Shown in pieces: positions 8,531-62,436 of a stretch of DNA of 64,000 nt. Under the pieces are notes generated by a model that was not told the origin of the DNA, made no database searches, and worked only from the letters and a program-made list of their open reading frames with translations. The stretch is from Escherichia phage p000y, in the sequence record MK047718.1; one strand, 5' to 3'. A program made the translations under genes and the position numbers. Each line of letters begins with the position of its first letter. Position 1 is the first letter of the stretch.

Positions 8531-8559
8531 TTTACATCTTCCTCTAGGCATGATATGAT
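8531..8559 (+). promoter_or_regulatory. T4-type early (sigma-70) promoter
   Basis: -35 TTTACA 8531-8536, 17-nt spacer, -10 TATGAT 8554-8559. Upstream of ORF 8589. Confidence 0.6.
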
Positions 8560-8588
8560 GAACTTACACCAACCAAGAGGAAAACATT

Positions 8589-8964: not shown

Positions 8965-9012
8965 TTTACTTCTCCAGTAGTTGTGTTATTATAGACCTAT
9001 CAACTACTGGAG
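8965..9012 (+). promoter_or_regulatory. early promoter embedded in a 12-bp stem-loop
   Basis: -35 TTTACT 8965-8970, -10 TATTAT 8987-8992. Perfect inverted repeat CTCCAGTAGTTG (8972-8983) / CAACTACTGGAG (9001-9012); the 3' arm contains the SD GGAG of ORF 9019. Confidence 0.65.
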
Positions 9013-9018
9013 AACAAA

Positions 9019-9336
9019 ATGAAAACCATCGATTGTAAAGCAGAATTTAAGATTTTTTATCACGGTTCAAGTAGTTCAGCTAACATCGAAAACATGCTTT
9101 GTCCTCCTGAGGAAACAGGAGTTCTGTCTGAAACTGGACGTAAGAAAAACTTGGATCGTGTATTCTTTACTGAAGATATCGGTTTAGCAAAGATTTATGC
9201 AGGACGAGCGGCACGCTCTTATGGAGGTGAACCACGTCTCTATCGAGTAATTTCTCCGGTAGACGTAGTTCAAATGAATAATACTAAAGGTGCTACAGTT
9301 TATCACGCTGAATGGGCATTTTGCGAGGAAATATGA
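9019..9336 (+). CDS. small Arr (rifampin ADP-ribosyltransferase)-like protein, candidate ADP-ribosyltransferase
   Basis: 105 aa. FYHGSS...(30 aa)...RVFFTEDIGLAKIYAGRAA...GEPRLYRVISP follows the Arr pattern FYHGT...YFS...A.WGAELA...G.IY.VEP as I recall it. It has its own early promoter in a stem-loop. Confidence 0.35.
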   Translation: MKTIDCKAEFKIFYHGSSSSANIENMLCPPEETGVLSETGRKKNLDRVFFTEDIGLAKIYAGRAARSYGGEPRLYRVISPVDVVQMNNTKGATVYHAEWAFCEEI

Positions 9337-10276: not shown

Positions 10277-10310
10277 TTTACATTATAGATGGACTATAGT
10301 ATAGTAGTCC
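10277..10310 (+). promoter_or_regulatory. early promoter with inverted repeat around the -10
   Basis: TTTACA 10277-10282, 17 nt, TATAGT 10300-10305. IR GGACTA (10291-10296) / TAGTCC (10305-10310). Confidence 0.65.
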
Positions 10311-10334
10311 TATCAAATCAACTAAGGAGTTAAA

Positions 10335-16608: not shown

Positions 16609-16637
16609 TGTACAAACTCTTCCGATGATGATACTAT
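16609..16637 (+). promoter_or_regulatory. early promoter (modB)
   Basis: TGTACA 16609-16614, 17 nt, TACTAT 16632-16637. Confidence 0.6.
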
Positions 16638-20491: not shown

Positions 20492-20520
20492 TTTACAACC
20501 AAGGATGGTTGGAGTATAAT
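20492..20520 (+). promoter_or_regulatory. early promoter with spacer hairpin
   Basis: TTTACA 20492-20497, 17 nt, TATAAT 20515-20520. The spacer forms CAACCA-AGGA-TGGTTG. Confidence 0.7.
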
Positions 20521-21048: not shown

Positions 21049-21077
21049 TGTACATCCAAGGACGGATGGAGTATAAT
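21049..21077 (+). promoter_or_regulatory. early promoter with spacer hairpin
   Basis: TGTACA 21049-21054, 17 nt, TATAAT 21072-21077. Spacer CATCC-AAGGAC-GGATG. Confidence 0.7.
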
Positions 21078-21997: not shown

Positions 21998-22046
21998 TTT
22001 ACTTCTCCTCCGGTTTTGATATTATAACCATATCAACCAGAGGAGA
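21998..22046 (+). promoter_or_regulatory. early promoter embedded in a stem-loop
   Basis: TTTACT 21998-22003, -10 TATTAT 22020-22025. IR TCTCCTCCGGTT (22004-22015) / AACCAGAGGAGA (22035-22046), 11 of 12 bp; the 3' arm contains the SD of ORF 22052. Confidence 0.65.
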
Positions 22047-22051
22047 ATAAT

Positions 22052-22576
22052 ATGTTAGTTTACCGCGTAGAACGTAGTTTTTGTACTCAACGTGAATCAT
22101 TACCAGGAATTGCTATCGAAGACGGTAAAGCCGTCAGAATTTGGGAAACCTCTTGGAATAAAGAACCTCGCTCGCCATACGGTTGGTCGGGCACCGACAA
22201 CTCTGAAGAAACATGGGAGTTCCTTGATAAGCATGGAATACTCTCAGGTAACTTCTACCATCACGGCGACAACTATAATGTCCCTAATCGTCCTACAGTA
22301 AATGAAGACAAACTCCTTGAACAAAATATCTTAAGATACCATAGAATTGAGTACACATTTGAATTGAGTGAAGATTGGGCTCAAGGGTTCTATTTTGGAT
22401 TTGAAAGCGTTGACGCGGTTTATGCATGGTTTGATGACCAGGTGGATGTTGAACTCTTGAAAGCTAAAGGATACTACATCGCGGTCTATGAAGCACCTGA
22501 TTTCATCCTCGGAAGTTGTCAATTAATGTTCAGACGTTCATTGGCAGAACAAGTTGATTTTATTTTGCTAAAATGA
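22052..22576 (+). CDS. hypothetical protein (174 aa)
   Basis: Early promoter/stem-loop at 21998-22046 and GAGGAG SD. No recognisable family. Confidence 0.6.
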   Translation: MLVYRVERSFCTQRESLPGIAIEDGKAVRIWETSWNKEPRSPYGWSGTDNSEETWEFLDKHGILSGNFYHHGDNYNVPNRPTVNEDKLLEQNILRYHRIEYTFELSEDWAQGFYFGFESVDAVYAWFDDQVDVELLKAKGYYIAVYEAPDFILGSCQLMFRRSLAEQVDFILLK

Positions 22577-31192: not shown

Positions 31193-31228
31193 TTTACAAC
31201 TAAGTAGGACTATGATATAGTAGTCCTA
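31193..31228 (+). promoter_or_regulatory. early promoter with 8-bp inverted repeat around the -10
   Basis: TTTACA 31193-31198, 17 nt, TATAGT 31216-31221. IR TAGGACTA (31205-31212) / TAGTCCTA (31221-31228). Confidence 0.7.
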
Positions 31229-31701: not shown

Positions 31702-31738
31702 TTTACAACAAGGTAGGATTATGGTATAGTAGTCCTAC
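31702..31738 (+). promoter_or_regulatory. early promoter with inverted repeat around the -10
   Basis: TTTACA 31702-31707, 17 nt, TATAGT 31725-31730. IR GTAGGA (31713-31718) / TCCTAC (31733-31738). Confidence 0.7.
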
Positions 31739-31758
31739 TGAAACATGAGGAACACAAA

Positions 31759-31959
31759 ATGGCTAAGCTTTTTAAAGATGTTGAAATTGGTGAAAAATTT
31801 GTTCTGAATAACGGTCAGCAGCTTATTCGTGTAGCTTCTATCGCCGGACAAACTCATAACTGTATCGCCCCAACGTGTTGGACTCGATTCTTTATTGAAG
31901 ATGACACTGAATGTTTAACTGTTGAAGAGCTTTTTGAACGTTCCGATATAGCCGAATAA
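31759..31959 (+). CDS. hypothetical protein (66 aa)
   Basis: Early promoter/stem-loop at 31702-31738 and GAGGAA SD. Confidence 0.55.
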   Translation: MAKLFKDVEIGEKFVLNNGQQLIRVASIAGQTHNCIAPTCWTRFFIEDDTECLTVEELFERSDIAE

Positions 31960-31962
31960 AAT

Positions 31963-31998
31963 TGTACAAACTCTTGAGAGCAGAGTATAATGCTCTCA
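31963..31998 (+). promoter_or_regulatory. early promoter with 8-bp inverted repeat around the -10 (ndd)
   Basis: TGTACA 31963-31968, 17 nt, TATAAT 31986-31991. IR TGAGAGCA (31975-31982) / TGCTCTCA (31991-31998). Confidence 0.7.
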
Positions 31999-32035
31999 TG
32001 GATTACAAAAACATTAATCAATTGAGGAAATTAGC

Positions 32036-32482
32036 ATGTCCAAATATTTAACTCGTAAAGACCTTCTGGCAGTTGGTGGTGAAGTTGTTGCCGTAGTTCG
32101 TAATGGCGAATACGGTTCTGAAGTTTCTAAAGAGTTTCGTTCTCGTGAAGGTTTTTACTTCTTTGTTAAAGGCTCATCCGATTGGCGACAAGTAGCAGCA
32201 CGATTCTTTGTAGGACGTCAACGTTCTAAACAAGGGTTGGATGCAATTCTTTCTCACATTCGTCAAGGCCGTTCGCAACTAGCCCGCACTATGGGCACTA
32301 ACAATATTGAATATGATGTAATCTTTGTTGCAGCTAAGAACATGAAACCACTGACCACTGGTTATGGTAAAGGTCAATTGGCTCTGGCATTCACTCGCAA
32401 CCATACATCAGAATATCAAACACTCACTGAAATGAACCGTCTTCTGGCAGATAATTTCAAATTCATTCTTCAGAGTTACTAA
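32036..32482 (+). CDS. ndd: Ndd nucleoid disruption protein
   Basis: [11 protein letters not shown]...[14 protein letters not shown]...[39 protein letters not shown] matches T4 Ndd as recalled, and the position is right. Confidence 0.8.
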
Positions 32483-32534
32483 TTTATACAGGCCTATTAA
32501 GTTGGGCCTTTAATTTATTTTTGAGGTAATTAAA

Positions 32535-51188: not shown

Positions 51189-51224
51189 TTTACAATCAGA
51201 TAGGGTTATGTTATAGTAGCCCTA
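51189..51224 (+). promoter_or_regulatory. early promoter with inverted repeat around the -10
   Basis: TTTACA 51189-51194, 17 nt, TATAGT 51212-51217. IR TAGGG (51201-51205) / CCCTA (51220-51224). Confidence 0.65.
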
Positions 51225-51251
51225 TCAAATAAAAGTGAAGAGGAGAATAAA

Positions 51252-59750: not shown

Positions 59751-60037
59751 TTAAATTAACTGTGGCTGTATTATCTATTGGTCTCCTAGTTGGATGTACT
59801 CAGGATGTGCCAGTAAGCCCTAAAGAAACTTTACATCCTTCATGGCCTACGCCTATTTCCGAATACAACCAGAAATGGCAAGTAAAGGTTATTGATGGTA
59901 ATCCGTGGGTTGGAATGCCATTTGAAGACTCTCAAGAATTTCGTATCTGGTTAAACGACGTAAAAAGATATATACATGACCAGAAGACTATGTTATGTTA
60001 TTATCGTAGTGGTTTAAAAGAGGAAAAATGCCAATGA
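59747..60037 (+). CDS. lipoprotein (96 aa)
   Basis: MIKLTVAVLSIGLLVGC with lipobox LVGC. ATGA-coupled. Confidence 0.65.
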   Translation: MIKLTVAVLSIGLLVGCTQDVPVSPKETLHPSWPTPISEYNQKWQVKVIDGNPWVGMPFEDSQEFRIWLNDVKRYIHDQKTMLCYYRSGLKEEKCQ

Positions 60038-60252
60038 CTAAAGAACAGCATGAATACATTAAAGGGCTTATCTATGAATCTGAAATGGCGGCTATGATTT
60101 ATGGACGCCAGATTCAACGATTAGAATCTTTGCCTCCGACTAATGACCGCTTGTTAGTTCAGTCTCGTGCTAATCTGAAAAATGAATATCAGAATAAGTG
60201 GGCAGTAGCGACTAAAGCTCTTCATGAGTATATTGAATCTTTAGTAAAATAG
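60028..60252 (+). CDS. hypothetical protein (74 aa)
   Basis: Overlaps the upstream ORF end by 10 nt. Confidence 0.5.
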   Translation: MPMTKEQHEYIKGLIYESEMAAMIYGRQIQRLESLPPTNDRLLVQSRANLKNEYQNKWAVATKALHEYIESLVK

Positions 60253-60287
60253 TTTACAAACTCTCAGGAGCAGAGTATAATGCTCCT
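60253..60287 (+). promoter_or_regulatory. early promoter with 7-bp inverted repeat around the -10
   Basis: TTTACA 60253-60258, 17 nt, TATAAT 60276-60281. IR AGGAGCA (60266-60272) / TGCTCCT (60281-60287). Near-copy of the 31963-31998 cassette. Confidence 0.7.
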
Positions 60288-60309
60288 ATGGATAATTGAG
60301 GAAATCTAA

Positions 60310-60608
60310 ATGAAAACATTACTAGAGAATTACATCAAACGGTCTGATGAGTATATTGATATCTGTCGTGGAATGTCACTTGGCAATTATGACAAAGATG
60401 CAGCAAAGGCACTAGATGAAGCAGGTAAAGCTCTTCGTAAAGCTGCTAAAGAAAAAGGGTTGGATTTGCAACAACTCAAAAGTCATATGATTAAATTTAT
60501 TTCTTCAAACGTTAGAAGTACGTCAATTAATAAAAACGTTGCTGAAATTAATAAAGACCGGCGCGAGCATAACATTCGTATTCTTGAAATTTTCTTAGGA
60601 ATAAAATA

Positions 60609-60609
<1 letters not shown>
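60310..60609 (+). CDS. hypothetical protein (99 aa)
   Basis: Early promoter/stem-loop at 60253-60287 and GAGGAA SD. Confidence 0.6.
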
Positions 60610-62379: not shown

Positions 62380-62408
62380 TTTACAACATGGTGGAGTTGT
62401 GATACTAT
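62380..62408 (+). promoter_or_regulatory. early promoter
   Basis: TTTACA 62380-62385, 17 nt, TACTAT 62403-62408. Confidence 0.6.
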
Positions 62409-62436
62409 AACTCTACCAACAAATGAGGAAATAGAA

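Follow-up and report, generated by a model that had tools for sequence, protein, structure and literature searches.

A hairpin around the -10 box of repeated early promoters in an RB69-like phage: selection as RNA and a possible coupling to RegB-type sites

Why should an early promoter be folded into a hairpin? This question is raised by two intergenic cassettes located 28 kb apart in a stretch of 64,000 nucleotides from Escherichia phage p000y (sequence record MK047718.1), which is referred to here as the window. In each cassette, the -10 box of an early promoter sits in the loop of a 7-8 bp hairpin. The first-pass annotation of the window had described the two cassettes as near-identical, had pointed out that their arms differ at two positions which are both compensated, and had likened them to the promoter-early stem-loops (PeSLs) of T4-type phages. 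It took the compensation as a sign that the hairpin itself is selected, whether as RNA in read-through transcripts, as a cruciform, or as a recombination site for module shuffling. The present analysis indicates that the cassettes are very probably of the PeSL type, with a hairpin that is selected as RNA and would form in read-through transcripts only. In addition, a RegB-type site was found directly after the hairpin, and the hairpin was found to outlive the promoter in other genera; neither point was in the first-pass annotation.

Two homologous cassettes and a covarying stem

The 2-kb stretch around the first cassette (copy 1) showed ca. 98% identity to many RB69-like Mosigvirus phages, including APCEc01, JK36, and mobillu, and the window is identified as RB69-like Mosigvirus DNA. 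Copy 1 lies between ORF (open reading frame) 31759-31959 and ndd, and the second cassette (copy 2) lies between a pseT.1 homologue and ORF 60310-60609. In the RefSeq annotation of APCEc01, copy 1 belongs to the rIIB-denB-ndd-ac-gene 52 region, where it is preceded by a small hypothetical gene and followed by ndd, while the setting of copy 2 is the alc-pseT.3-pseT.2-...-pseT region. The identity of ndd was backed by Pfam PF06591 (E=4e-89). Each cassette occupies ca. 60-75 bp between genes and contains, in this order, the upstream stop codon, a sigma-70-type promoter, the hairpin, a GGA(G/U) plus A-rich motif, and the ribosome-binding site of the downstream gene. Both promoters fit 10 of the 12 consensus hexamer positions and have AT-rich sequences upstream (AATAAAAT and AGTAAAATAG).

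Both cassettes were present as quoted. When they were aligned, 6 of 41 positions differed, and 4 of these differences belong to two base pairs in which a change on one side is compensated on the other (G-C to A-T in one pair, A-T to G-C in the other). A pattern in which the variable arm positions were set to N matched exactly 2 sites in the window, with 0 expected from 100 shuffles. The similarity of the copies extends to the ribosome-binding site (AATTGAGGAAAT), broken by a 16-bp indel in copy 1; therefore, they are homologous cassettes and more than two good promoters. The isolated hairpins folded at -12.6 kcal/mol (copy 1; z-score, -3.7) and -11.4 kcal/mol (copy 2; z-score, -3.4). Rfam at gathering thresholds returned no family anywhere in the window. 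A small upstream ORF starting from an ATG after the stem was considered and rejected, since it is found only in some copies and others read ACGGAT or GTGGAG.

To collect further copies, IMG/VR, JGI/ENA metagenomes, and annotated phage records were searched with the pattern TACAAACTC-N9-GAGTATAAT, which puts no constraint on the arms. Few RB69-like genomes were available in IMG/VR, and most of the diversity came from a widened pattern, the metagenome scan, and the annotated phage records. The resulting family A consisted of 39 distinct T4-type copies in a fixed-register alignment (A1). At least four named Tevenvirinae genera contributed, namely Mosigvirus, Dhakavirus (JS98), Tequatrovirus (RB32, where the copy precedes motB), and Kanagawavirus (CIP9, where it precedes ndd); other copies came from an unassigned VR26-like type and from metagenomes. 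Four copies were found per Mosigvirus genome (31963 and 60253 in the window; 12035 and 42548 in L021). Standard pairs accounted for 98.9% of the stem cells in A1, as compared to 41-51% when the register was slid and 84.3% after shuffling, where 0 of 500 shuffles came up to the level observed. Double-sided changes had occurred in five of the seven stem pairs, one of which was seen as G-C, C-G, A-U, and U-A. The arms formed ca. 15 haplotypes, such as GAGAGCA/TGCTCTC, GAGGACA/TGTCCTC, GGGGTCA/TGACCCC, and GGGAGTA/TACTCCC, with variation at 6 of 7 positions. As a negative control, 23 unrelated promoters with the same flanks showed only 24% Watson-Crick pairs in the same register. Thus, this alignment, which is much larger and more diverse than the original pair, gave strong confirmation that the covariation is a sign of selection on the hairpin.

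In the fourth Mosigvirus copy (L021 42538-42594, APCEc01), an uncompensated C.U mismatch was observed (GAGAGCA/TTCTCTC). Contigs L053 and L083 carry GAGAGAT/TTCTCTC, in which the mismatched pair of APCEc01 is restored and the closing pair is opened. These arms may represent a snapshot of arm turnover.

The kind of mismatch that was tolerated indicates on which molecule selection acts. The stem cells of A1 comprised 247 Watson-Crick pairs, 23 G.U pairs, 0 A.C pairs, and 3 other cells that were true mismatches, and a G.U closing pair was stably kept in 17 of the 39 distinct copies, across several genera. The four further sites named in the first-pass annotation (10277, 31193, 31702, and 51189) proved to be real and make up a second family with TAGGACTA/TAGTCCTA arms (family B), whose consensus is GTTTACA...TAGGACTA-tgtTATAG-TAGTCCTATC and which has further members in L021 (8039, 14849, 16413, and 27099). 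In family B, 84% of the cells were paired, as against 20-60% in slid registers, and double changes were found in 6 of 10 pairs; the cells of its 8-bp core comprised 170 Watson-Crick pairs, 12 G.U pairs, 0 A.C pairs, and 2 others. In DNA, a G.T read from the opposite strand becomes an A.C; this one-sided tolerance therefore points to the sense-strand transcript, and not to a cruciform or a protein-bound palindrome. The hairpin is thus judged to be selected as sense-strand RNA. Among the forms that had been offered for it, RNA stands, with the additional support of promoterless orthologues that keep the hairpin (see below), and the cruciform falls away.

The 5' arm of every copy takes up the spacer between about -24 and -17, while its 3' counterpart begins with the last base of the -10 box and ends at about -1. 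A sigma-70 start site ca. 7 nt past the -10 box would fall on the A or G right after the stem. Because the 5' arm lies upstream of this predicted start, transcripts initiated at the cassette would be without the hairpin, and only read-through RNA would fold the stem. We consider it highly probable that the element is a PeSL-type cassette with an RNA-selected hairpin of this read-through-only kind.

The comparison with PeSLs drawn in the first-pass annotation was borne out, since all their sequence-level defining features were found, including a stem-loop that overlaps the -10 box (PMC2839356). Like the PeSLs of RB49/phi1 (Arbiol 2010) and of PST/T4 and nt-1/KVP40 (Comeau 2014), the cassettes consist of an intergenic stop, an AT-rich stretch, a sigma-70-like early promoter, a stem-loop, and a Shine-Dalgarno sequence with ATG. 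The overlap with the -10 box is a common subclass in Arbiol 2010, and G-T pairs are tolerated there as well. Both are repeated within a genome, among small genes of unknown function and at indel or replacement junctions, including the case of an ORF between two copies. There are also differences. The stems described here are of mixed sequence, whereas RB49 stems are polyG/polyC, and they surround the -10 box, whereas PST/T4 stems are drawn upstream of the promoter. Cross-genus covariation and strand asymmetry, which were untried in those papers, are added here, as are the RegB-type site right after the stem and the occurrence of the hairpin without a promoter in other genera. The terminator role proposed for PeSLs is unsupported by the sequence of the present cassettes, which have no U-tract.

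The RegB-type site and the ndd leader

A GGA(G/U) plus A-rich tail was found directly 3' of the stem in every T4-type copy. Strong RegB/S1 sites follow the consensus GG^AG-RAYARAA, in which GGAU is tolerated and C is excluded from most positions (Durand 2006; Uzan and Miller 2010; PMC3014915, PMC1702504). The 11-nt post-stem motif fits this consensus and resembles the RegB/S1 targets of T4 early mRNAs in being intergenic and in an early transcript; it differs in that both window copies have GGAU, the weaker variant. The 14 distinct cassette tails matched the tail consensus at a mean of 5.57 of 7 positions, as compared to 2.76 of 7 for all 774 GGA[GT] sites in the genome, and 64% of the cassette tails had at least 6 of 7 matches, as against 2.6% of the background. 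Upstream of motB, the T4-type copy reads GGAGTATAAAA and contains the exact motB substrate GGAGUAUAAAA (GGAG followed by U, A, U, A, A, A, A), which RegB cuts efficiently in vivo and in vitro (Durand 2006, PMC1702504). Therefore, one member of the cassette family is the standard model substrate of RegB and the one studied best. RegB cleavage in infection is known only for this T4 motB copy (PMC1702504), and the sites in the window copies are predicted from sequence. A regB gene (PF10715) is present in the nearest relative. To our knowledge, a conserved hairpin immediately 5' of RegB sites has not been described as part of the target.

The ndd loci (set A3) were gathered by protein similarity, independently of the cassette sequence; their upstream regions were read, and ten loci were folded. 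In Mosigvirus, VR26-like phages, and Kanagawavirus, ndd is preceded by a family A promoter, family A arms, and the GGA(G/U) plus A-rich motif. In JS98-type Dhakavirus, the promoter has diverged and the hairpin has new arms (GAGAATCA/TGGTTCTC, with one U.G pair) followed by GGATAACAAAA. No promoter was found upstream of ndd in the remaining three groups, all of which carry a hairpin: GGGCC-UUCG-GGCCC followed by GAGGAUAAAC in CC31 (Karamvirus; L127), GGGAGC-CUAG-GCUCCC followed by AUAGAGGAUAAAAC in Klebsiella PhiKpNIH-6-like phages (L134-L136), and CGGACAU-loop-AUGUCCG followed by U-GGAGUAUAAAA in EcS1-like phages (L137-L138). In the Klebsiella hairpin, the family A arms GGGAGC/GCTCCC enclose a loop of 4 nt, whereas the loop of the other copies holds the -10 box. 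The promoterless hairpins have tight loops and are situated ca. 35-60 nt before ndd, after the stop codon of the upstream gene and before the GGA motif, which is the position of the cassette in the window. Neither a U-tract nor a masking helix was found in these promoterless orthologues (CC31, Klebsiella PhiKpNIH-6-like, and EcS1). The distance from GGA to AUG was 32-36 nt in nine of the ten folded loci, the outlier being L141 (25 nt). On these alignments, a module of hairpin plus GGA upstream of ndd is conserved with or without a promoter threaded through it, with three genera lacking the promoter. Since the module is kept without the promoter, it is difficult to square with a role at the level of the promoter or of the DNA, and the hairpin appears to be tied to the RNA leader.

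Based on these results, we tentatively propose the following mechanism. RegB would cut the read-through RNA at GG^A, 2-5 nt past the stem, and the hairpin would then cap the new 3' end of the upstream message and block 3'-exonucleases. RegB-made 3' ends have been proposed as entry sites for RNase II and RNase R (PMC3014915). The RNA of the downstream gene would decay on its own schedule, and the cassette would thus act as an RNA boundary that uncouples neighbouring early messages. The repeated cassette of ca. 60 bp would offer homology for recombination as a side effect. Capping as such is plausible, although we would not give it an even chance; the explanation as a whole, in which the well-supported PeSL-type cassette and the less certain capping are taken together, is held with moderate confidence and is the best that we can offer. 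A broader version is possible but more doubtful. In it, the conserved unit would be an RNA punctuation mark and not a promoter: a hairpin placed 5' of a RegB/S1 site, at a fixed 32-36 nt before the start codon, would cut early polycistrons into independently decaying pieces and cap the upstream piece. The early promoter would have been threaded through this unit in the T4-, RB69-, JS98-, and CIP9-like lineages, and the repeated module would serve as homology for gene shuffling.

Several observations weigh against the coupling of the hairpin to RegB or against selection on the stem. GGAU, which is weaker than GGAG, is found in most copies of the genus, including both window copies, and only 2 of 30 intergenic GGAU sites in T4 were cut well (PMC1702504). 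RegB needs no sequence 5' of GGAG (PMC1702504), and therefore the hairpin is not required for the cleavage itself. The GGA[TG] motif was among the criteria for membership of family A, which makes its invariance in A1 a partly circular result; the ndd orthologue set does not suffer from this bias. The start site is predicted, from promoter geometry only. The stems of family B have no GGA directly after them, the nearest being the ribosome-binding site 15-25 nt further on, and the coupling is looser there. Finally, when single mismatches were counted in all promoter-associated stems, the outcome (28 G.U, 13 A.C, and 22 others) was less clean than the counts above; this census includes short chance stems and the anti-Shine-Dalgarno class of promoters described below, and the two fixed-register family alignments were relied on instead.

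Other explanations for the hairpin

The function proposed for PeSLs is that of an attenuator or terminator, which would halt the upstream polymerase so that small early genes depend on their own promoters. Selection on sense-strand RNA fits this function as well as it fits capping, and the hairpin lies 10-15 nt past the upstream stop codon, a typical terminator position. Moreover, an RB49 PeSL stem-loop placed between a promoter and lacZ cut expression about as much as rrnB T1 did (PMC2839356); that assay read lacZ output, however, which RNA processing would lower too. A sense-strand stem-loop shortly past a stop codon is shared with intrinsic terminators, but the cassettes have a short, moderately G+C-rich stem of modest stability (-11 to -13 kcal/mol) with an 8-nt loop, and no copy has a U-tract. 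Post-stem sequences include ATGGATTAC, ATGGATAAT, and GTGGAGTAT, and the tails in the window (ATGGATTACA and ATGGATAATT) have no U-tract within 0-2 nt of the stem, as an intrinsic terminator would. The promoterless orthologues are likewise without U-tracts. A scan of the + strand for terminators left the cassette hairpins uncalled, yet directly after ndd (32490-32519) it called a hairpin that resembles a canonical terminator and has a T-rich tail (AGGCCTATTAAGTTGGGCCT TTAATTTATT), and therefore the phage does use ordinary terminators elsewhere. Because it has no U-tract, the cassette is not a canonical terminator by sequence, and we regard termination as an unlikely reason for the conservation of the stem.

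A second explanation is a switch that depends on the start site. In an extended helix, the spacer ACUCU and the GGAG/U would pair on top of the 7-bp stem and mask the RegB site in read-through RNA. RNA from the cassette's own promoter would expose the GGA at +3, so that RegB and then polynucleotide kinase and RNase G/E would selectively remove the local immediate-early RNA. By thermodynamic prediction only, the motif is free in RNA from the predicted +1 and is paired with the spacer ACUCU in read-through RNA in 34 of the 39 copies, with a mean pairing probability of 0.74; for the T4-type copy, the value was 0.98 in a predicted 12-bp helix of -17.4 kcal/mol. Secondary structure inhibits RegB (PMC1702504, PMC3014915), and transcripts from the motB promoter and the RegB cut were seen by primer extension in the same RNA preparations (PMC1702504). 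Anti-Shine-Dalgarno spacers in the same genome show that such a design principle exists here. On the other hand, the extension shows no variation on either strand, and its 5' strand had been included in the pattern used for retrieval, which places the extension outside covariation testing. Substitutions in the arm-adjacent column, as in L026, lower the predicted pairing and are uncompensated, no masking helix is present in the promoterless orthologues, and the JS98-type ndd variant (spacer ACCTC) has, by inspection, no evident pairing of GGA. Since it cannot be tested by covariation and is absent by inspection in JS98-type ndd, the extended helix was kept as a rival and not as the main model; we consider the switch quite improbable.

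It is very improbable that the selected object is in the DNA, be it a cruciform, a palindromic protein site over the -10 box, or a dedicated recombination site, with RNA folding being incidental. The cassette does lie at rearrangement junctions, and mini-circles between PeSLs have been recovered, one of them with its crossover inside the stem-loop's loop (Arbiol 2010, PMC2839356). However, the ratio of G.U to A.C (23:0 in family A and 12:0 in family B) is asymmetric between the strands, and arm haplotypes as varied as those of family A leave no conserved half-site for a protein. Arms of 7-8 bp with an 8-nt loop are too short for ready cruciform extrusion. The hairpin also persists without promoter or repeat, and recombination needs only ca. 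60 bp of homology, not pairing.

Hardly credible is the view that the hairpin is functionless and that its pairing is a mutational by-product of templated quasi-palindrome mutation or gene conversion: T4 is the classical system of hairpin-templated mutation, in which both arms can be changed in one event, and copies within one genome often share arms (GAGAGCA in three of the four Mosigvirus copies), but templated correction gives perfect palindromes, yet the G.U closing pair is kept in 17 of 39 copies, the asymmetry of G.U over A.C requires selection on one strand, the stem is kept at orthologous positions with unrelated arms and loops in three further genera, and unrelated promoters with the same flanks show no pairing.

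Other promoter hairpins, gene order, and implications

The features of the two cassettes and of the other hairpin-bearing promoters in the window are listed in Table 1.

Table 1. Positions of the cassette features, neighbouring genes, and further promoter hairpins in the window
Feature	Position	Strand	Details
Stop codon TAA of the upstream small ORF	31957..31959	+	ORF 31759-31959; 4 nt before the copy 1 -35
Copy 1 early promoter	31963..31991	+	-35 TGTACA 31963-31968; 17-nt spacer; -10 TATAAT 31986-31991
Copy 1 predicted start site	~A31998	+	Predicted from sigma-70 geometry
Copy 1 hairpin	31975..31998	+	(T)GAGAGCA 31975-31982; loop GAGTATAA 31983-31990; TGCTCTC(A) 31991-31998
Copy 1 seven-nt arms	31976-31982; 31991-31997	+	GAGAGCA; TGCTCTC
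Copy 1 RegB-type motif (predicted)	32000..32010	+	GGATTACAAAA; 6/7 tail positions fit GGAG/U-RAYARAA
ndd Shine-Dalgarno and start codon	32024..32038	+	GAGGAAA; ATG at 32036
ndd ORF	32036-32482	+	Downstream of copy 1
Stop codon TAG of the pseT.1 homologue	60250..60252	+	ORF 60028-60252; abuts the copy 2 -35
Copy 2 early promoter	60253..60281	+	-35 TTTACA 60253-60258; 17-nt spacer; -10 TATAAT 60276-60281
Copy 2 predicted start site	~A60288	+	Predicted from sigma-70 geometry
Copy 2 hairpin	60266..60287	+	AGGAGCA 60266-60272; loop GAGTATAA 60273-60280; TGCTCCT 60281-60287
Copy 2 RegB-type motif (predicted)	60290..60300	+	GGATAATTGAG; 5/7 tail positions; overlaps Shine-Dalgarno GAGG (60298-60301) of ORF 60310-60609
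ORF downstream of copy 2	60310-60609	+	ATG at 60310
Family B promoter	10277..10316	+	GGACTA/TAGTCC arms around -10 TATAGT
Family B promoter hairpin	31193..31228	+	TAGGACTA 31205-31212 with TAGTCCTA 31221-31228
Family B promoter hairpin	31702..31739	+	GGTAGGATTA with TAGTCCTAC; one U.G pair
Family B promoter hairpin	51189..51226	+	GATAGGGTTA with TAGCCCTATC; one compensated pair, one U.G
Further early promoter, arms around the -10	62380..62418	+	ATGGTGGAGTT with AACTCTACCA; duplex -17.1 kcal/mol; shuffle p=0; absent from the first-pass annotation

A composite Mosigvirus genome, made up of the window and pieces of APCEc01, contained 52 early-promoter-like sites. Their spacers paired with their own downstream sequence better than with that of others (mean, -9.97 vs -6.92 kcal/mol; permutation, 0/5000). 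Individually, 17 of the 52 sites were significant for this pairing, most of them with the 3' arm next to the -10 box, and hairpins based on the spacer were found at ca. 20 of the 52. In family B, the 3' arm coincides with AGnCCTATC, the conserved sequence at early-promoter start sites.

Another class of early promoters has an anti-Shine-Dalgarno spacer, with a -35 TTTACT followed by a TCTCCTC-like sequence. It was seen in the window at 8965-9021, 21998-22054, and 8531-8582, and also in L021 at 22997, 19439, 26650, and 10977. At 8965, TCTCCAGTAGTTG and CAACTACTGGAGA, the second of which includes the ribosome-binding site, form a perfect helix of 13 bp (-22.7 kcal/mol), and at 21998, spacer and ribosome-binding site form a 12-bp helix with one C.A. 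In this class, the ribosome-binding site would be hidden in read-through RNA and exposed in RNA that starts locally. The same hiding logic is found in T4 e, soc, 49, and I-TevI, but the promoters concerned are late there and early here. The two cassettes share with these T4 hairpins an embedded promoter that leaves the 5' strand only in transcripts started upstream. They differ in that the T4 hairpins sequester the Shine-Dalgarno sequence or the AUG and contain late promoters, whereas the ribosome-binding site of the cassettes is outside the stem, 26 nt downstream in copy 1, and 10 nt downstream and marginally reachable in copy 2. The sequestering design of the e/soc type is thus seen at other early promoters of the window (8965, 21998, and 8531).

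Three further observations concern other promoters. A third promoter family (window 20492-20520 and 21049-21077; L021 32912 and 33908; L020 4062) has the spacer (a/t)CCAAGGA(T/C)GG(T/A)TGGAG before TATAAT, and its internal repeat CCAA...TTGG is wholly upstream of the -10 box. The promoter at 16609-16637 begins its spacer with AACTCTT as in family A and has no arms around the -10 box; in its folding, CUCUU pairs with the downstream Shine-Dalgarno AGGAG. Metagenome contigs L061, L069, L072, L080, L107, L115, L056, and L097 contain promoters that are not of the T4 type and have the same -35 and -10 flanks (TTTTACAAACTC...GGAGTATAAT). The transcribed leader after them carries a conserved hairpin of another kind, GCCAGCC-nnnn-GGCTGGC. 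They appear to be a separate promoter-leader family of another phage group.

The flanking genes were compared across related phages, as suggested in the first-pass annotation, and the cassette was found at indel and replacement junctions. Downstream of it are members of at least seven gene families (MotB, Ndd, and PHROGs 1475, 4482, 2364, 1203, and 10053), and upstream of it at least 14 different ORFs. Its copies lie in the denB-ndd and alc-pseT regions, in agreement with the concentration of PeSLs in variable regions of small non-essential ORFs. In the VR26-like contig L047, the gene order is U3-cassette-ORF (114 aa)-cassette-ndd, as compared to U3-cassette-ndd in the window, and the tandem copies of L047 are an arrangement that would allow mini-circles. 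At the pseT locus of T4-like PP01, the stop codon of pseT.1 overlaps the start of the next gene, and there is no cassette between the pseT.1 and D5 homologues; the window has a 57-bp cassette where PP01 has none, and JS98 has a different upstream ORF, a cassette, and an extra ORF. Gene partners were also mixed, with U2 next to D5 in L049 and U5 next to MotB in L060. The position of the cassette at gene-order breakpoints matches the PeSL shuffling model and is what recombination between repeated copies would be expected to leave at insertion, deletion, and replacement junctions. Module shuffling, as invoked in the first-pass annotation, is thus retained here as a consequence of the repeat and not as the reason for the hairpin.

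The promoter class and the class of RegB sites were already known; new for PeSLs are the RNA-level selection, the lack of a terminator signature, and the coupling to RegB. No paper that connects PeSLs to RB69 or Mosigvirus came up in our literature search, and the cassette family is, within that search, unreported for RB69-like phages; no usable global map of 5' and 3' ends of T4 was found either. PeSLs have so far been seen as promoter-terminator units and recombination substrates, the terminator part resting on one RB49 reporter assay. For annotation, the cassette family flags early promoters and rearrangement junctions in at least four genera. If the hairpin caps RegB-made 3' ends, this would explain how tightly packed early genes have separate mRNA lifetimes, and RegB, which is widely conserved but dispensable, would gain a structural partner. 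As the T4 cassette lies upstream of motB, a non-essential gene, T4 itself would allow a direct test of this idea.

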